Origin: Basidioascus undulatus
Lineage: Eukaryota
DNA length: 46,435 nucleotides
Assembly (NCBI GenBank): GCA_000826855.1
Contig: JTLS01000019.1
Span: 1-46,435 of the forward strand
Direction of reading: 5' to 3'
This document shows positions 16,924-44,352 of the stretch, piece by piece. Every line of letters begins with the position of its first letter. Position 1 is the stretch's first letter. The translations under genes were made by a program, and so were the position numbers. The notes under the pieces are model-generated. The model was not told the origin of the DNA and searched no databases. It saw only the letters and a list, made by a program, of their open reading frames with translations.

Positions 16924-17471
16924 GCAGTCCACCAGATGGTGACATTCATATGCGTCGTTTTACGCTTCTGAGACGGAGGGCCTCGAGGCAGAGTCTGACG
17001 GTTCAATTTGCGCTTGTTTCTTGACACCGCTCAAGTTGTTTCATTTCAACGCTCGAGACCCGCGGAGGCGATCGTGCACGAGAAACTGCGAGTCCGTGAA
17101 TTAAAGGAGAGCAAATGTCGACTGGGACGCGTACACGAGCGGGTTATTACCTGGCTGGCCGCACCTCAGCGCTCCCTTCCATATTGTTTCTGGATTCGAT
17201 TTCTTAGTTCCAGCAATGGTACTTCGCGAGGTGCTACTGCGCTCACCTTCCCTCTCGTTTCTACCCACTACTTCATTCGAAAAACAGGAGCAACACGCTC
17301 TGGGAGATACTGGATGTAATCCGTAAGCGCGCACAGCATGTCATAATGTATCAAACGATCATCTTGACAGAATGTATCAAACCATCATGTCATGCTGCAT
17401 TGCAAAGCTTCAAGATACGACAGTCCTTCGTTCAAATATTCTTGTTCTCACTGATGCTCGCGAGCCATACT

Positions 17472-19067
17472 TCAAGCCCCAAGCTCCTTCGGGTCCAGCT
17501 CACCGCGCTGTGGAGCCGCCGCCGGTCGAATGATGAGCCTCTGCGTACACCCTATTCCGACAGACGAAACCAGGACTTACGGCAGCCTGCCAGCACCACT
17601 TGGCGCGCTCCACGAACAACTTCTTTGCGGACTCGACGTCTCCCTCGGCCCACTTCTGCATCGCGACGCCCTGCAGAGCGCGTCCGTAGCTGAACGAAAC
17701 GGGCCAGGGGAAACCCTCGTGCGACTTGGCGTAGCCTGTTCCTCAGGATGTCAAAAAATTACGCCGGCCCAAATATGGGAAACAGGTCGTACGGTTGATA
17801 GCGTCAAGGTTGAAGATCGACTCCGTGTCAGACATGCCGCCCGAAAGGAAGACGACGCCGGCAGTCGCAGGCGGAACGGTTGAACTTAGAACGTCTTTCG
17901 TTACACAACATGGTCAGTTATACACCTCTGGAGTGCAAACGTCGATTTCACACACGGTACGTCGCAGCGGCAACCTCCTCGGGAGTGATCTTGCCCTTGA
18001 ACTCCGTGCCGGCATGCGCCATGGCGGGCTTGAGAAGGAGGCCCGGGAGATAGAGCTTGTGGCGAGCGAGTGCGCGGAAGAGGCTGGAGAGGACCTCGAT
18101 AGAAGCTTCGACGGAACGGGCTGCAGAACAAGTTTCAGTGGCAAGTCCTCGATGCACTCAAGTACGAAAGCGTTCGTGTTGACCAACCAGTGTCGTGAGC
18201 GCCGTCCATGAGAATCTCAGGCTCGACAATCTGCTCACGCTGAGCTGAGAAACCACGACATAATTCATCGTAATTGAAACTCCAACGCACCGGAACGAAT
18301 CCCTTGGACTGGCAAATCGAGGCATAGCGCGCAAGAACCTCCGAGTTGGTCTCGATAGCGCGGTGCGAGGGCGTCGACTCAGTGATCGTAAAAACGCAGC
18401 CTGAAATGCAGACGATTAATTGCTTTATCGGGGTTGAAACGTGTTCCAGACACTTACGGTGCTTCGTGAACCGCGCGCCTTGCTCCCAGTACTTCTCGAG
18501 CCGCGCCCCCAGCCCGTCAAGACCTTCCGACGTCTGCTCGTTGTTGCTGTGCAGGAGGTCCACGAGCCCCTGGAATGTGTCTGAACGTCAGAAAAGACGC
18601 TGAAGTTAATGGGAAAAAGAAAAAGACTGACCTTGTCGGTCTTCACACCGACAACGACGCCGAGCTTCGTAAGGACGTCCGGGAAGGGTTCGCCCTTGTT
18701 CGTCTTGTGCCCGAGCGTCTCCTCAAAGGTGATAATCTGTTGAAAGAATTTCGAAACGGATTCAGAAGTCCAGTTCAGATGACATGATTAAGGATGGACT
18801 GACACCGCCGAGATACTTGCCCAAGTCAGGCGACGCAGTGAAGAGGGTGTCGCGCCACGCCCGCCTGTGCTCCTCGGTGTTCTCCTTCCCAACCTTGTCG
18901 AAACGCCTGGATATCCCTCGTCAACATCCGCTCCAAGCTCATATGAATTAGACAGACTTCTTGATACTGCCGGTCGACTCGTCGGCGGCCAGCAGGCCCT
19001 TCCCATCCGCCACGATGGAATCGGCGATCTTCTTGAGCGAGGCCTCGTCATAAACCGGCTTGGACAT
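17472..19067 (-). CDS. Fructose-bisphosphate aldolase, class I (Schiff-base, metal-independent)
   Basis: GKGLLAADESTGSIKKRF, ENTEEHRR, FEETL, VGVKTDKG, EGLDGL, GARFTKHR, LARYASICQ, VPIVEPE, LLKPAM (Schiff-base Lys), FLSGG, SFSYGRALQ. Nine canonical introns, no stops or frameshifts. Confidence 0.95.
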
Positions 19068-19160
19068 GATTGCGTGTCTGGCGTTGAGTATGATGGAGAT
19101 GAGAGCGTTGGAAGTTGATAGATGGAGTGGAAAAGAAAGACATGAAGGAGAGGGACCGGG

Positions 19161-19228
19161 ACCTTATAAGACGATAGTCGCAAGGTTGCGTCATTTGACC
19201 GGCCGTGTGACCTTCAAAGTCGAAAGGT
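19161..19228. promoter_or_regulatory. Cluster of ACCTT/AAGGT (ZRE-like) half-sites around a TATA-like element upstream of the aldolase
   Basis: ACCTT 19161, CAAGGT 19181-19186, ACCTTCAAAGT 19210-19220 (one mismatch to the Zap1 ZRE ACCTTNAAGGT), AAGGT 19224-19228, TATAAG overlapping 19163-19170. Lies about 95-160 bp above the ATG. Confidence 0.35.
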
Positions 19229-19520
19229 CTGCCGCTGCAGTCAGTCCGGGCAGCGCCGATGTGGAGAATGTGGAGACTTTGATCTTTGACAATAGACTGG
19301 TGATGATCGAAAGAAGTAGAAGGGGAGATAACCCTGATCACGTCCTCAGAGCACGGAGCCCGGCGAGCGCAATCTTGCTGTCTTGGATCACAACGCTGCA
19401 CCTTTCGTTAGGCTCTGAGTGTCCTATCCTGCCTACAAAAATGGGCAAATATTACGGGGCGACGTCTTGTAATACGATATTAAAGGCGTCTACCAAATGC
19501 CACGCCTTACAGCGCGCCCC

Positions 19521-21530
19521 TCACATCGCACACGTCTTGTCGCCTGCGCCCGGGGAAGAGCACCCGCACTGCGCACCCTCCTCCTCGGCCCTGCAGCACT
19601 CGCCGAGCGCGGCGAGCTGCCTCTTGAGGACGTCTACCTCCTTCACCACCTCCTCTCCACCCACGTCGAGCGCCTCCCTGACCATTTCCGAGATCCCCTC
19701 GCGCATCTCCGTTGGCACGAGCGGCAGGAGGTTGCTCGTGCTGCTGAACAGCGCGATTATGAGCAGCGGAGCGAGAGAATCCGAGTCGACTCCGAGTGCG
19801 GAAAGCCGCGTCGGTTGCAGGCGGGCGATAAGGGGAGGAAGGGATGCAGTGGAGGACGCGCGAGCGGTAAGAGCGGGGGTGGGCAGAGTGGCGAGATGTG
19901 CGAAAATACTCGCGAGGACCTCGGAAGCGGGTTTCGATGGGGCGAAGCTGAGCAAGAGTTTGGAGAAGGATGCGTTGAGGGTCGCCCATGACGACTGGGG
20001 GCAGGACGGAGATGAGGCGGGTTAATGTTGGAGGAAGGGGGCGAGGCGTTTACCTTATTGAGCGAGAGAGTCGTCAATGACAGCGGGGCAGCCAAAGAGG
20101 TCGGATCTGAAGGGGGGAGAAGCGAGAGGAGGGAGTAGCCGCTGAGGAAAGGGTAGAATGTAAGCAAACGTCAGCGAAGCCAGACGTGCTGATGTTAATA
20201 TACCGTGGTTGCCCAGTTGCCTTGTCTAGCGGCAAGAGCGAGTTCCACGCATCCGGGACGGATACCCAATACGAGGGATACTGGATCAGGTGGTATTTTT
20301 TAGTGAGCACGCACGTCGCAGAGATGTAGGACGTCAGTCGAGACAGCCCACTTTGAAACGTGCGACGTCCAAGATGAGCACCTGTCAGCCGAGTATGATC
20401 AGTCATTCCAATTCGTCACCAAAGTTCGATTCGAACGTGGATTCGCCAACTCACCATGTCGTCCTTCTCCGCATATCCCGCGATGGGCGAGAAGTGACCG
20501 TCGCCGGTCTGGCCCAATGCAGCTCGGGAATAGCTCAGTGCCATCAACGTTCCGGTCGTCGTGTTCGCGCGCTTGAGGTCCTCGCGGAACTTCCGCAAAG
20601 CCCGCTGGTGGTCGATCGTCTGGAGCGGAGAGACCACCTCGGCGTGAAGGCCGTTGCAGCGAGCGAGACAGGCGAACTCGGAAAGGGTCACGCCGACTTT
20701 CTCGACGGCGGACAGCGGGCGGCAGCAGTCGAGCATCTCCTGTTCATACCATCTGAAAACAAGGACCGTCAGGTTGTCATTGGCCAAAAAGCGAAGAGGC
20801 GCAGGCGCACCGCCAAGGCCCCTTCCTTCAACCATAGCACAGGCGGTCAGAAAATGGTACACCCGTGATGTACATTTCAGACTACGCCCTACCATTCTGA
20901 AAAGTAACTTCGATTAGTTCCACGGTGACAGCGCCCACTCGAATGGCGTGACTCACGTCTTTGCGGGTCCACCTCGAGGGCGTTCAAGATCTAAGGACGT
21001 GCATCGTCGGTCTAGGGCCTTCGATTTAGGCAGGAAAGGGTGCGTACCATGCAAAGAGTGCCCAATCCACAGTACGCGGGCTCCTGTTGCGAATGTAGTG
21101 TTAGCAAGAATCTGGGCAACCTAGCCCAATTGAGAGGTAACTTTCCTGTTGCGTCAAGAACTGAGAGAAGCAGCTCGGTAAGCGTCCGATCCACAGAGTA
21201 CTATCGAGCGCTTGCTGGAAAAGGCCAACTCACCTGACCCGCAAGAGGAACTGACCTCCGAGCCGCGGTCAGCACCGTATTCATCATCGTCCTCACCCGT
21301 TACACGCAGGACTTACAGTAAGCCTCCATGTTCCCCTCCGCCAGCGCCGTCCTAAACAGAGCCTTGCCCTTAGCTGACCCAAACGGTACGCATGAGGCCG
21401 GGAGAGGTCGCTTATAGAACGATGGGGCGGGCGTGAGCGGGTGGGGTCGAAGCGAGAGCGGTATCGCGGCGGCGGCGGCCGCGGCCTTGGTGGCGGCGGC
21501 GGTGGCGCCGTGGGCGGCTGGAATTGCCAT
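19521..21530 (-). CDS. PCS1: Phytochelatin synthase (glutathione gamma-glutamylcysteinyltransferase)
   Basis: SFYKRPLP, ALAEGNMEAY|FPLAGQ|FLTQQ|EPAYCGLGTLCM|ILNALEVDPQR|QW|KGPWR|WYEQEMLDCC, QTGDGHFSPIAGY, LILDVARFK|YPSYWV: Cys-His-Asp triad intact, Cys-rich C-terminus. The model needs micro-exons and one GA-AG intron. Confidence 0.93.
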
Positions 21531-21926
21531 GACTGGGTATGCGCTTTCGATGAGGACAGGACAATGCGACGAGATGTGTACGGTATGATTCGAGGTGGCG
21601 ATGCTGAGTGTGGAACGTCAAGTTCAGAAGAGGCTGACGAGCTTGAGCGAAACTCGCCCGCGAACGGCCGAGATCGCGATAAGGATCTAATCGCCGAGGG
21701 CGAGAATTCGAAGTCGCAGCTCGTGCACTTTCCCGGCATCGTTCTTCAATCCATCTTGAAGAGGGTAATGCAGGCCTACCCTGGGCGGGCACCTATTGCA
21801 CACAAAAAGAAGCATGCAAACGAGAATTGGAGCATAAAGCGCAGTACAGCTTGTGCACTACAATGCCCGTTGTCATGTATGGTCCGATCGCAAGTTCCCT
21901 TACCTCTATCAACTCAGACCGGGAAA

Positions 21927-23742
21927 TCATGCTCTGTCTATGGGAGTAGGATAGTGATAAGGCGGACGAAGTGGGCCACCCTGTATGTCCGATTCTATTC
22001 CAGTCAGCGGCGCGAAAGCACAGCTGTGCACCTTGCAGTACGCACGCGCTTCTCTAGCCGATTCCACGTCATCCACGAAAAGGTGTAAAGCGGAAGGTTG
22101 TAGCTGTTTATTGAGGACAGAGAGTCAATGTGTGTTTCAATCGTGAAGGAAACGAAAAACATACTACTTCCAGCTACTCCACGGGAACCAGCCGGTGTTC
22201 TGCGCTGCGACGGCTTGCCAATCGGCTGTTCGCTCCAGTCAGCGGCGCATAGCGAATGGTTATTGCAGTGTGAGATTCAGCTTACTCTGCATCGTCCTCC
22301 TCAATGCCAAGTACGACGATGGCACGTCGGTGATGACCGCGCGGCAGCCCCACTACCCATCCGTCTTCTCAGCGCACCCACAGCGCGTCAACCGTCCTGA
22401 ATCGCGAAAAACGAACCTTGGCTGCCTCAACCATCTCGTTGCTACCCAAATTCACATATAAGCCGTACTGCGCTTGAGAATCTAAGCCTCAAAGCACGCA
22501 CTGATTGTTCACAGTCCAAACCATCAGCTCCTTCCCCGCCGCTTTCACGTCCTTTCTAAAGAGCTCTCCTTCCGCACCCTGAACCCCAGACAACAGTCAG
22601 CCTTTAATACTGATCGTCCAAATCCGCGATGATTGACCACGAGTGACCCAAAGAAGATAGAAAAGGTCTGGCAGTCCTTCCTGGATGCATGCGACCGCAA
22701 GTCAGCCAGCGGGAGAGCACGCGCAGCAAGTCGAACCACGCACCAGAAAAACTCCCGCGCTATCGCCGTCCCAAATCCGATGTGGGAGAAATGAATGTTG
22801 GGGAGATAACGCTTGGCGGGCTCGATGCAGCGCGGGTGCCACAGGCCGAGGACGATACGCGGCGAGAGCTCGGTCGGGGCCTCCGGAAGTTGGCGTGTAG
22901 ATTAGGAGAGGTACTCTGAAAAGCAAACAAAAGTACATCAAGACGTACCGTAGGGTACTTCGCCAGCTTGTCCCGGATGATGCGGAACATCCGCTCGGGG
23001 TCGTTTTCGGGCTTAACGTCCACCTGAATCACCGGTCCCTCTCGCGTAAGTATTTAGGGATTACCTTAGATATAAGAAAATGATCTTTTCTCTCGTTGAA
23101 CTCCACATGCCGATTCTCCTCCCGCATCAAGAGCTCGAACATCTGGTCGAGCGTCGGCATCGGCTGCTTCGGCTCGGCCTTTGTCCGCACGTGCTCAAGC
23201 ACGCCGTGCCATGGCTGGGAGGCGATCATGCCCGTGCCGTCCGTGCAGCGCTCGATGGAGCTGCATACGTGAGGTAGAGGGCGAAGTAGGGGGCGATTCA
23301 GGGAGCGCCCAGCAAGGAGATGGTTGAGAGACGCAGGGGGCTCACGGATCATGGTGCAGGACGACTACGTTGTCCGTAGTGATATGGAGGTCTGATCAAA
23401 TTCGAAGTTAGCACTGAGATCTTGCCGGAGCGGGACAGCGGATCAGTGTCAGGCTTACCGCTCTCCAGTCCCTCAGCGCCGTCCCTGCATCTCACGGTCC
23501 CATAAGTTTTCCCTCATTCAATCACAGTTGCAGATTCAAGAAAGCACTAACCGAATTGCAGCCTCGAAACTAGCCATTGTGTTCTCCGGCTACCCAGGGC
23601 GCGTCGAAAGCCAGTCTGCAGAGTGAGCGAGCCGGCTAGGATGAGCGAGCTCACGTTCACTCACCCAAGCGGCCGACGCGCCTCGATGGCCATAGCACTT
23701 TGGGAACTTCTGCGGCGTGGGATCCGTATGCTCTACAGCCAT
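21927..23742 (-). CDS. Glycerophosphodiester phosphodiesterase-family protein, Pgc1-like (phosphatidylglycerol phospholipase C)
   Basis: CYGHRGASAAW|PENTMASF, GAEGLES|DLHITTDNVVVLHHDP, HVEFN|VDVKPENDP, PRIVLGLWHP, LMVWTVN, AVITD, hydrophobic C-terminal segment ending GGPLRPPYHYPTPIDRA*. Confidence 0.85.
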
Positions 23743-34017: not shown

Positions 34018-35888
34018 TCAGTAGCGGTGGACCTCCTCGCGCTCGCGGCCGCGCATGAAGGGCGGCTCGGTGCCCTTGTAGTAGATGTCGTCCCAGAGGT
34101 GGTCAAGCGAGGGCTCGGGAGACTGCTTCGCCTCCTCCACCGCCTGGTCGACCTCGGTCTTGGCGGCCTTGTCAATCGCCTACGGGGTACACGAATTAGT
34201 GTTAGCAAGCGTGAGACTCTTGAGGAAAGAAGGAGTGATGAAAGAGGGAGCGGAAGGAAGGAGAAGGAGGGTGGGGGAGAAGGAAATGGGGAGCGAGGAA
34301 GAGGGGACAAACCTTCAGGTCCGACTCCTCCGCGACGCCCCACTCGAGGATGCGCGTCTTCAGGCCGTTGATCGCGTCCTGGGTCGAGCGCATGTGCTGG
34401 ATCTCCTCACGGGTACGGTAGGTGGTGCCGGGGTCGGACATACTGGGAGCGCGCCATCACGTCAGCTGGATTGCAGGCGGAGAAGGAAGCGCTGCTAAGA
34501 GGGAGGAGAGGAGACGCACGAGTGACCACCGTAGCGGTAGGTGACGAACTCCACGACGAGCGGGCCCTTGCCGTCGACGGTCCACTGCTTGGCCCACTTG
34601 CACGCCTGGTGCACGGCGAGGATGTCCATGCCGTTGACCTGTTACGAAGTTCCACCGATTAGGCAAGCTCGTTCTTACGAAACGAGCGGGGAAAAGCAGA
34701 ACTCGAGCAGGGCTACGCACCTGGAGACCTGGGATCAAGTCACCGCGCTTGAAATACTCGGTATTGCTGGAGCTGCGCTCCGCGGACGTGCCCATGCCGT
34801 ACTTGTTGTTCTCGCAGACGAAGACGCAGGGGAGGTTCCAGAGCTTGGCCATGTTGTACGCCTCGAAGACCTGGCCCTGGTTGCTCGCGCCGTCGCCGTA
34901 CATCGCGAACGTCACGCTCGGGTTCCCAACGTACTTCTGCGCAAACGCGATGCCGGCGCCGACGGGCACCTGCGCGCCGACGATGCCGTTGCCGCCGAAG
35001 AACGTCGGCGTGAACATGTGCATCGAACCGCCCTTGCCGTTGGAGATGCCGGCCTCGCGACCTGCAGCGGCGGAGCGAAAGCAGGATTAGCGGGAAAGGG
35101 TGGGCTGGGAGGGGCACGGAGAGGGAAGACGAACCGAGAAGCTCAGCAAGGACACTCTTGATCGTACCGCCACGGAGGACAGCGAAGGGGTGGCAGCGGT
35201 AGGCAGTGATGACACGGTCGCGATCCGTGATCGCTGACTCCATGCCGACGGAGATGGCCTCCTGCAGGGCGGGGAATGGGGAAGGGAGGGAGGAAATGGT
35301 CAGCGGACGGTCAATGATATCGATCTTGCAAGTGCATGTATGCCTTCCGGCACTCTGCAGGTGGTTCCCATGGCATTCCAACATCCAAAGAACCCCAAGG
35401 ATGCCTTATCGTGCTACATCTGCCCTCCTCGCTCCCACTCGCGTCTCGTTCTACTGGGCCCAGCGCACTCACCTGACCAATCGCCAAGTGGCAGAACCCG
35501 CGGATAAGCTTAGCCTTGTAGAGGGCGTCGGCGGCCTGCTCCATCCTGCGCATGGTGACCATCTGCTTGTACATGTTGAGCAGGCTATCCTTGGTGACCT
35601 CGACGTCGAGCGGGGGCGCCTCGGTGCGGTAGCCGTGGAACGAGTCCTCGTGCAGCGTCACGGTGAACTTCTCGTCGGCGCCCTGGGGGACATTGGACGG
35701 CGACTGCGAACCGAGAGCGGACTGCTGGAGGAAGCGCGCGGTGGACGGGAGGCGCTGGGGTAGGGGAAGAAGGGGAGGGTAAGCAACACTGCAGGGGGAT
35801 GATTGCATCGTATCGGGTAGAATATGAAATCGCGACGCACAACGGCGGGGCGGACCGCGCTGCGGAGGGAACGCGCGAGGAAGAACAT
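34018..35888 (-). CDS. PDA1: Pyruvate dehydrogenase E1 alpha subunit, mitochondrial
   Basis: [113 protein letters not shown]-terminal REREEVHRY*. Confidence 0.97.
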
Positions 35889-42409: not shown

Positions 42410-44352
42410 TCACCGCCCCTTCCTCGCCTTCCCAACCTTCCCAGACGTAGCCGCCTTGCCCTCGCCCTTGCTCGAAGGCGCCTCGACGCGAGCGCGCTTC
42501 GCCGGTACAGGCGCAGGCGGGACATCGTCCTCCTCCTCATCCTCCTCCTTGCTCTGGAAGGACCGGAAGATCAGTCCATAAACTTCGGAAGGGCTATGAG
42601 CAACGAAGGAAAGAACGTACCCCCTCATCCTCCCCTTCCTCACCCTCACTGACCTCGCCAAAGTCCATCTCATCGAGGTCCTCCTCTTCCTCTTCATCCT
42701 CACCGGCCTCTTCGCCCTCAGCGCTCCACTCCTCGTCCTCGCCCCACTCGGCCTGCTCCTCTTCGTCCTCCTTCTCCTCGGCGTCGTCCTCGGCAGAAGG
42801 AGCCGCGCCCTTGCGCGCAGCCTTCTCGGCCTGCTTGCGCGCGACGTTGGCCTCCTGCTCCTTCCTGCGCGCGGCCTGCTCGGCCTTCTTGCGTGCGTGC
42901 GCGGCGGCGGTCTCCTTTGCTTCCTTGGGGGTCTTTTTGACTGCACGAAGAAGGAACGGAAAAGTCCGTCAGCTACCAACGACAGCAGGGCTAGACAAGT
43001 TGGGAACGTACCGAACTCGTGGAACAGCACCTCGCCCTCACCGCCGCCACCGCCGCCGCCCTTCTTCGGCTCGCTGCCCGCCAAGCCCGTCGTGATCTTG
43101 ACGAGCCTGAGCTCCATCCTGGGCCCGATCTCCCTGAGCTTGACCGCGCGCTTCTCGTCCTTCCTGTTCCCGCGGCCGACATAGTCCTCCGCGAGCTGGA
43201 CAACTTTGCCCCCCGGGCCCTCCTCCGCCTCGGACTCCGCCTCGGACTCGCTCCCCGTCTCGTATCCGCCGCCCGCCTGGCCGAGCACAAAGTCCGCGAC
43301 GTCCTGCACGCTCGAGAGGTCCGGCACGGCGGCGGTCTTGCGGGATTGGGTCGAGGAGGGCACGATGCGCCGCACGCGCTTTGAGACGCCGTACGGCTTA
43401 ACGGTAATGCTGTAGTGCCGGAGGTCGATCGTGTGCGTGGAGGGGTTGTAGGAGAGGAGGAGCAGCCGGCGCGCGGCGGAGAGGGGGAGGGTAGAGATGT
43501 CGAGCGGGGGGAAGAGGGACTGGAAGAGCGTCGTGAGGAGCTTGTGCGGCCGGGACGCGGTGGGGAAGCCATTCATCACGAGCTGTGGTTTATCCGCTCG
43601 ATGTGTCAGCGTCACCACTACAAGGGAGAGAATGGAAGAGGGAGTTGTGGAGGAAGCAAGACGCACGAGCGGTGGCACCTCGCCCGCCTTGCCGATGCTC
43701 GGGAAGTGTCTGCTCGCGACGCGGAGGTCGGACGCGAGCGAGTAGCGCTCGACGCGGAGGTGGAGCGTGGGCCCGCGCGGCGTGCGCGCGACGCGGAGGT
43801 TGACGTGCTTGTCGGTGCGGGTGAAGATGAGGATGTGCGTGAGCTGGAGCGCCGACGTGAGCGCCAGAAAGTCTGGCAGTCGATTCGAGGAGCGTTCCTG
43901 TGAGGAGAAGAGCCCCTTAGCTCGCCGGGGTGACGGAAGAGGAGCGGGACAGAGAAACGGCGTACACGCAGACGAGTCGCGGTGTTGGGCTCGAGGATGG
44001 TACGCACTTCGCGCACAAGCTGCGCGACGGATTTGCCCACGTCGCCGGAGCGGATGACGAACGACCGGGGTACCTTGCTCTCTGGTGCTCTTTCGACGCC
44101 GGGAGCGTGGCTGGTAGATACTTCCTAAGTCAGTATGCTAATACTCCCAGCGTCCCAACCGTTCTCCCATCCCGACAGCCCAATACTCGAGAAAGCAAGC
44201 CGGCGACAGACCTGAGGGCGCCGCCCTTGAGATGCGTCTTCTTGGCCTTCTTGCGGTGCTTGCCCTGTACCAACAAGTGTCCGGAGCCAAATGTAAGCAC
44301 TCCGCCATGGCTTATACCACCATACATGCTAATCTTGGGAAGAACTGACCAT
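42410..44352 (-). CDS. SSF1: Brix-domain 60S biogenesis factor Ssf1/Peter Pan
   Basis: ATG|intron|GKHRKKAKKTH, VPRSFVIRSG, LEPNTATRLR|ERSSNRLPDF, TPRGPTLHLRVERYSL, LVMNGF, FQSLFPP, IDLRHYSI, KRAVKLREIGPRMELRLVKI, GEVLFHEF, acidic tail. Confidence 0.93.

Follow-up and report, generated by a model that had tools for sequence, protein, structure and literature searches.

Introns in the human FGFR genes that open with GA in place of GT were reportedly described by Brackenridge et al. in 2003. Such GA-AG introns are now established in human FGFR and ITPR1 (PMC4176328), and the FGFR GA site needs a canonical GT six nucleotides (nt) upstream (PMC7072748, PMC4176328) plus downstream intronic elements (PMC7072748, PMC4176328, PMC6280755). 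In the genomes of Eurytemora affinis and of Oikopleura dioica, GA-AG introns number in the thousands, at about 3% and about 12% (PMC7072748, PMC5714493). Among fungi, 35 of them are given for Ganoderma lingzhi, or 0.038% (Table 1, PMC11590231), and in Fusarium graminearum they fall within the 0.31% of ‘other’ sites (PMC3577648). A second group of relevant systems concerns intron gain. Neo-introns of Daphnia pulex have been placed at staggered double-strand breaks, with the exon’s terminal 4-12 bp repeated at the opposite intron end in 33 such repeats, and newly gained Oikopleura introns are cited as mostly GA-AG (PMC4202315); direct repeats near intron borders have also been described generally (PMC11782384). 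Here we describe a GA-AG intron, intron 3 of a phytochelatin synthase (PCS) gene, in a 46,435-base stretch of DNA from Basidioascus undulatus (contig JTLS01000019.1, analysed whole and called the window below). It is a further case of a rare, already known kind of splice site, and a literature search at the level of listings and selected passages found no report of a non-canonical intron in a PCS gene.

With the human FGFR introns, which are used efficiently and constitutively (PMC7072748, PMC4176328, PMC6280755), intron 3 shares a GA donor in an otherwise strong U2-type context, but the 15-nt exon that precedes it holds no GT, and the sole nearby GT is formed by the donor’s own +5 and +6 positions. 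As in Eurytemora and Oikopleura, AG stands before the GA and A after it (AG/GAA; PMC7072748), whereas here GA-AG accounts for only 1 of the 19 transcript-supported introns in a 6-kb stretch. The cases in Ganoderma lingzhi and Fusarium graminearum are likewise rare, isolated and transcript-supported GA-AG introns in GT-AG fungal genomes (PMC11590231, PMC3577648); intron 3 differs from them in belonging to another lineage, judged by the grouping of the PCS protein, in interrupting the stretch that runs from the oxyanion-hole Gln to the catalytic Cys, and in its 10-nt repeat. At 8 + 2 = 10 bp that repeat compares with the 4-12 bp repeats of the Daphnia neo-introns (PMC4202315), although the age of those was set by presence/absence polymorphism and their sites are canonical in nearly every case, while the donor here is GA.

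On its sequence, the gene that carries intron 3 is a phytochelatin synthase of the papain-like family PF05023. Exon 8 alone matched the Pfam profile with an E value of 2e-28 (99.5 bits), exon 1 scored 24.2 bits, just short of the 24.9 cut-off, and the Pfam scan found no family in the C-terminal exon. When the exon 8 protein was used as query, 535 of 736 candidates were homologues at E <= 0.001; the top named matches, 60-66% identical, were PCS proteins from Microbotryomycetes yeasts such as Meredithblackwellia, Sporobolomyces and Rhodotorula. The window’s PCS thus groups with Microbotryomycetes/Pucciniomycotina, with identity up to 66%, and the search (736 candidates) returned no near-identical protein and no close relative. 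Over the catalytic N-terminal region, the spliced model aligned without gaps to 10 homologues, across which the TQ, EPAYCG (Cys), GDGHFSP (His) and LDVARFK (Asp) segments are conserved, and the TQ encoded by exon 3 is invariant (10/10). We take the catalytic roles of the PCS Cys, His and Asp, and of the Gln six residues before the Cys, to be those known from the Nostoc and Arabidopsis literature. The eleven introns of the gene are 57-73 nt each, and ten of them are GT-AG. The features around intron 3, all on the minus strand, are as follows.

19521 to 21530, minus strand: PCS gene, with 12 exons, 11 introns and a 1302-nt coding sequence for 433 amino acids plus stop (translated exon model, Pfam, homologue alignment and transcript contig).
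21234 to 21250, minus strand: exon 2, a 17-nt micro-exon (exon model; its letters are found in the transcript contig).
21146 to 21160, minus strand: exon 3, a 15-nt micro-exon, TTCTTGACGCAACAG, encoding FLTQQ and including the Gln six residues before the catalytic Cys (exon model, transcript contig and alignment).
21084 to 21145, minus strand: intron 3, 62 nt, GA-AG (exon model; missing from the transcript contig of run X3 and present in the DNA contigs of runs X1 and X2, described below).
21140 to 21148, minus strand: 5' splice site junction CAG/GAAAGT, an 8/9 match to CAG/GTAAGT with the mismatch only at +2 (21144).
21100 to 21105, minus strand: GCTAAC branch-site motif, in which the A at 21101 is the putative branch point and precedes the 3' junction by 18 nt (sequence).
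21048 to 21083, minus strand: exon 4, 36 nt, EPAYCGLGTLCM, with the catalytic Cys codon at 21071-21069 (exon model and alignment).

A previous interpretation of this locus from its letters alone, referred to here as the sequence-only reading, had described a FLTQQ exon of 15 nt at 21160-21146 followed by GAAAGT, and then a 62-nt intron with a GCTAAC branch and a CAG end leading into EPAYCG. Both stand there when the minus strand is read, the intron at 21145-21084. Apart from the A at +2, intron 3 looks ordinary. Its donor scored 4.42 bits outside +1/+2, which ranks fifth among 19 introns in a tie with intron 2, in a comparison where the register shifts for some upstream-gene introns may be off by 1-2 bases. 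Its length, branch motif and acceptor (CAG, of the YAG type) resemble those of the 18 transcript-supported GT-AG introns, and the other PCS introns carry CTRAY-like motifs at a spacing similar to that of its CTAAC. The consequences of retention and skipping also agree with that reading: retention shifts the frame and, as we find, runs into a stop after 14 codons, and skipping of exon 3 is in frame and deletes FLTQQ with its conserved Gln.

Both junctions lie within a 10-nt direct repeat, which had likewise been pointed out and which an exact match search located at 21153-21144 and 21091-21082.

21144 to 21153, minus strand: direct repeat copy 1, CGCAACAGGA, formed by the last 8 nt of exon 3 and the intron-opening GA.
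21082 to 21091, minus strand: direct repeat copy 2, CGCAACAGGA, formed by the last 8 nt of intron 3 and the GA of exon 4’s first codon (Glu).

Because the repeat spans both junctions, 11 cut registers yield an identical messenger RNA (mRNA). An AG acceptor is present in only one of them, the one that gives GA..AG, and none of the 11 has GT-AG, GC-AG or AT-AC ends. The sequence-only reading had further held that no in-frame GT or GC donor exists. For GT this stood, since 0 of 22 enumerated in-frame donor/acceptor pairs were GT-AG; for GC it was a slight overstatement, since two GC-AG pairs share the donor at 21152 and would give introns of 32 and 41 nt. We rejected these two because they would insert foreign residues that the transcript does not show, and the transcript junction was reproduced by none of the 22 in-frame combinations.

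We used contigs from three sequencing runs, X1 (2014), X2 (2025) and X3, none of which is on record as RNA, placed on positions 17000-23000. The X1 contig (depth 18.7) and the X2 contig (depth 48.4) each cover this whole region in one piece and contain no differing letter, no indel and no joint; the two runs come from separate samples and studies. The joined, intron-less form of exons 3 and 4 occurs in neither set of DNA contigs, which indicates that no intron-less allele or paralogue with a likeness of 95% or more exists.

The contigs of X3, which shares its sample with X2, are different in kind. Three of them fall within 17000-23000, with zero depth in the bins 19010-19411 and 21623-21823, both outside the PCS gene, and they show 25 joints; among the 15 displayed, all 13 simple ones are CT..AC, which is GT..AG on the minus strand. 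We infer that X3 is a transcript library, because introns are absent from its contigs. Its single PCS contig, record 5, is 1343 nt long at a depth of 208.4, has 0 other letters and extends from 21609 to 19559; it contains none of the 11 PCS introns, introns 4 and 8-11 appearing as simple joints and introns 1-3 and 5-7 within two compound joints. At the joint 21091->21317, the 24 letters in between are, as we read them, exon 2 followed by the opening 7 nt of exon 3, both in reverse complement, and past the joint the contig continues from the downstream repeat copy, on which the aligner placed the repeated letters. Record 5 therefore joins exon 3 (FLTQQ) to exon 4 (EPAYCG) in frame with exactly 62 nt gone. 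In the bin 21020-21220 the X3 depth of 45.6 works out as 44/201 x 208.4, and intron 3 is accordingly covered by no X3 contig.

The DNA carries GA at the donor, the mature transcript lacks exactly 62 nt, and the encoded protein is colinear with its homologues through the Gln...Cys segment. Intron 3 is thus very probably a genuine U2-type spliceosomal intron with a DNA-encoded 5' GA for GT, which is removed precisely and productively in vivo. Real non-canonical splicing had been one of three possibilities raised from the letters, and it is the one that the contigs support. We propose that the U1 small nuclear ribonucleoprotein would recognise the GA site because positions -3 to +1 and +3 to +6 all fit the consensus CAG/G.AAGT, and that intron definition would then proceed on a normal branch motif, a CAG acceptor and a length, 62 nt, that is typical; in a fungus with introns of ~60 nt, recognition across the intron with 8/9 U1 pairs is plausible. 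The second splicing step needs a G at either end of the intron, and intron 3 retains both, at +1 and at its last position. Unspliced RNA would meet the stop after 14 codons and would probably be degraded, so that only the spliced form may accumulate.

How a GA donor came to stand at this site can be explained in two ways. According to the first, to which we give about an even chance, the intron is old and was born with GT-AG ends, and a recent T>A change at +2 was tolerated thanks to a donor that is otherwise perfect, the 10-nt repeat being a coincidence. This explanation concerns the origin of intron 3 only, and several observations agree with it: CAG/GTAAGT is one step away, no second copy of the intron 3 sequence was found in the window, and CAG/G at both junctions is expected from the splice consensus, which leaves only about 6 of the 10 repeat letters to chance. 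The repeat is nevertheless out of line with the other introns, measuring 10 nt as against 0-4 nt in the 18 transcript-supported GT-AG introns and 0-5 nt in 63 motif-predicted introns across the window. CGCAACAGGA has exactly two copies in the window, where 0.12 are expected, and a count of 2 was reached in 0 of 100 shuffles. In addition, the non-canonical A falls within the repeat and matches the middle base of the Glu codon, which is what a duplication would produce.

Comparison with relatives bears on the age of the intron in both directions. Intron positions were examined in 12 related metagenome loci (the best 12 of 80, making up roughly six lineages, two of which are near-identical contig sets), which are only 50-62% identical to the window’s gene over exon 8. 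An intron at the site of intron 3 was found in 0 of the 12, and the TQ(N/A)EPA codons are contiguous in all of them, which speaks against an old intron. However, counterparts were found only near introns 2, 8, 9 and 10, and five further introns in the same 66 codons as intron 3 are equally without one, so that the lack of the intron from distant relatives says little for its youth, and the unshared neighbours count in favour of an old intron. Exon 3 closes with a CAG codon (Gln), at a residue where the homologues have Asn (8/10), His (1/10) or Gln (1/10), and a CAG at the exon 3 end fits either a pre-existing CAG/G protosplice site or a later adaptation.

According to the second explanation, which we put forward tentatively and regard as somewhat doubtful, intron 3 is a young gain, produced by a 10-bp staggered break in CGCAACAGGA whose two sides were both filled in around a 52-bp filler. 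Under such a gain, the sole AG-bearing register would make the donor begin with a GA that duplicates the one in the conserved Glu codon, while AAGT from the filler would complete a near-perfect donor. The GA would then be a structural consequence of birth at a CAG/GA site and not a mutation, and the spliceosome of this fungus would tolerate GA well enough to keep the catalytic core intact. If the young gain is true, the seven introns in 66 codons and the 4-nt exon of this gene would mark a local burst of intron gain. A search of the 46-kb window gave neither an introner-like second copy nor a source for the filler, the best match being one of 13 nt to the branch region with an E value of 0.046. 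This match, CTTGCTAACACTA, is exact, lies at 34197-34209 on the minus strand, and is probably the branch site of another intron. A larger tandem duplication, of the intron 2 tail and exon 3 into intron 3, was considered and rejected, as its local alignment score was 14, shuffles averaged 13.7, and 1018 of 2000 of them reached 14 or more.

Several points weigh against genuine splicing of intron 3. The record of X3 reads ‘DNA?’ and not RNA, its transcript nature being our reading of its contigs; the transcript support amounts to one assembled contig from one run; and contigs lose rare variants and cannot gauge splicing efficiency, regulation by metals or the throttling of PCS output that the sequence-only reading thought possible, just as nonsense-mediated decay would hide unproductive PCS isoforms from them. 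The spliceosomal route is read from sequence signals and the contig. Since X1 or X2 may be the source of the assembly, at most one of them checks position 21144 independently. Finally, template switching by reverse transcriptase classically leaves just such a mark, a direct repeat (10 nt here) where a junction is non-canonical.

The last point leads to an alternative in which the 62-nt loss is an artefact of complementary DNA, made when reverse transcriptase jumped between the 10-nt repeats, while the 62 nt stay in the real mRNA and the gene is a pseudogene freshly frameshifted by the T>A change at the donor. The perfect 10-nt repeat at this non-canonical junction would serve such a jump, and direct repeats of this kind favour template switching (PMC4176328). 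Artefact ‘introns’ are described as having direct repeats and non-canonical junctions, as being without U2-like signals, and as GC-rich and structured (PMC4176328). Intron 3 is like them in its junction repeats and non-canonical dinucleotides, and unlike them in its U2-like donor, branch and acceptor, its weak structure, the conserved frame and its standing as the sole assembled form. The segment has an 8/9 donor match, CTAAC at -18, a CAG acceptor and a typical length. No RNA fold that would join the junctions or aid a jump was found against shuffles, with z values of -0.57 for a 91-nt stretch and -0.72 for intron 3 alone; the value of intron 3 is like those of 5 of 6 other introns folded, intron 6 giving -1.53. 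Artefacts are usually minority products, whereas the deleted form is the only one assembled in X3 (depth 208) and no X3 contig covers the intron. The remainder of the PCS gene is also intact, and the deletion restores the conserved frame exactly. We consider the artefact improbable, and the fresh inactivating mutation proposed from the letters is contradicted by the in-frame joining of exons 3 and 4 in the transcript contig.

An error of assembly or base calling at a donor that is really GT is very improbable. The donor is one base off the consensus, and the DNA runs may include the assembly’s own source, but contigs from runs of 2014 and 2025, on separate samples and in separate studies, at depths of 18.7 and 48.4, show 0 other letters over 6001 bases; their identity with the window over 17000-23000 contradicts the possibility, one of three raised in the sequence-only reading, that the A was a base-call error. 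That intron 3 leaves the RNA in some way other than by ordinary one-step U2 splicing is scarcely credible. U12-type introns have an extended donor, (A/G)TATCCTT, and a TCCTTAAC branch site, and for an Ire1/tRNA-ligase type of removal the 3' junction CAG/GAGC does fit the CNGNNGN loop motif. All three such routes were rejected on sequence, because intron 3 has neither an ATATCC/GTATCC donor nor a TCCTTAAC branch (its donor is GAAAGTTA and its branch region TTGCTAAC), its 5' junction is off the Ire1 motif and no twin stem-loops are predicted, and, for a nested ‘stwintron’ (as defined in PMC12403724), 62 nt leave no room for a nested intron and the letters past the first G are not a donor.

The interest of intron 3 beyond its splice-site kind lies in the repeat and in the intron-dense, micro-exon-rich catalytic region in which it sits; what is known of phytochelatin synthase itself is unchanged. 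A transcript-supported GA donor without an upstream helper GT offers a clean natural test of how the other donor positions compensate for a lost U at +2, and an exact 10-nt junction duplication that encloses the non-canonical base leaves a footprint by which intron gain in a fungal lineage can be tested. There is also a practical consequence, in that gene predictors restricted to GT and GC donors will break the PCS gene at its catalytic centre, and micro-exons of 4, 15, 15 and 17 nt add to the risk. The catalytic N-terminus holds seven introns in about 66 codons, and its 4-nt exon 6 is flanked by introns of 60 and 67 nt. Two further micro-exons belong to this region.

20893 to 20896, minus strand: exon 6, a 4-nt micro-exon, AATG (exon model; in the transcript contig between 20753 and 20957).
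20811 to 20825, minus strand: exon 7, a 15-nt micro-exon with the codons for KGPW and part of R (exon model and transcript contig).

Intron 6 (20826-20892, minus strand) ends in AAG, with a purine at -3 in place of the usual pyrimidine, and its boundary is backed by the transcript contig. Among the homologues, the annotated PCS of Rhodotorula paludigena (P0011) is without the segment that carries the Gln and the catalytic Cys, and the PCS model of Microbotryomycetes sp. JL201 (P0009) has an extra KSVHFS ahead of that segment. Both look like gene-model errors within the same intron-rich stretch.

In the window as a whole, exact direct repeats of >= 10 nt at 45-100 nt spacing number 10, as against 2.44 in first-order Markov simulations (maximum 9 in 200), and several of them are low-complexity. 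The other nine showed no intron signals. One of these nine, a 14-nt direct repeat, CGCGACGCGGAGGT, stands at 43715-43800 on the plus strand, with copies at 43715 and 43787 and a spacing of 72 nt; it has one GT..AG register, is GC-rich, lacks a branch motif and has a length that is a multiple of three, and the segment is probably a coding repeat. An Rfam scan of the window gave no match. The genes on either side of PCS are spliced in X3 too, at about 17393-19066 and 21979-22948, both on the minus strand. The downstream neighbour has its ATG start at 19066, and its opening appears to resemble class I aldolase, but Pfam gave no match on its 37-residue first exon. The upstream neighbour (21979-22948) contains at least 8 introns, of 59-68 nt.

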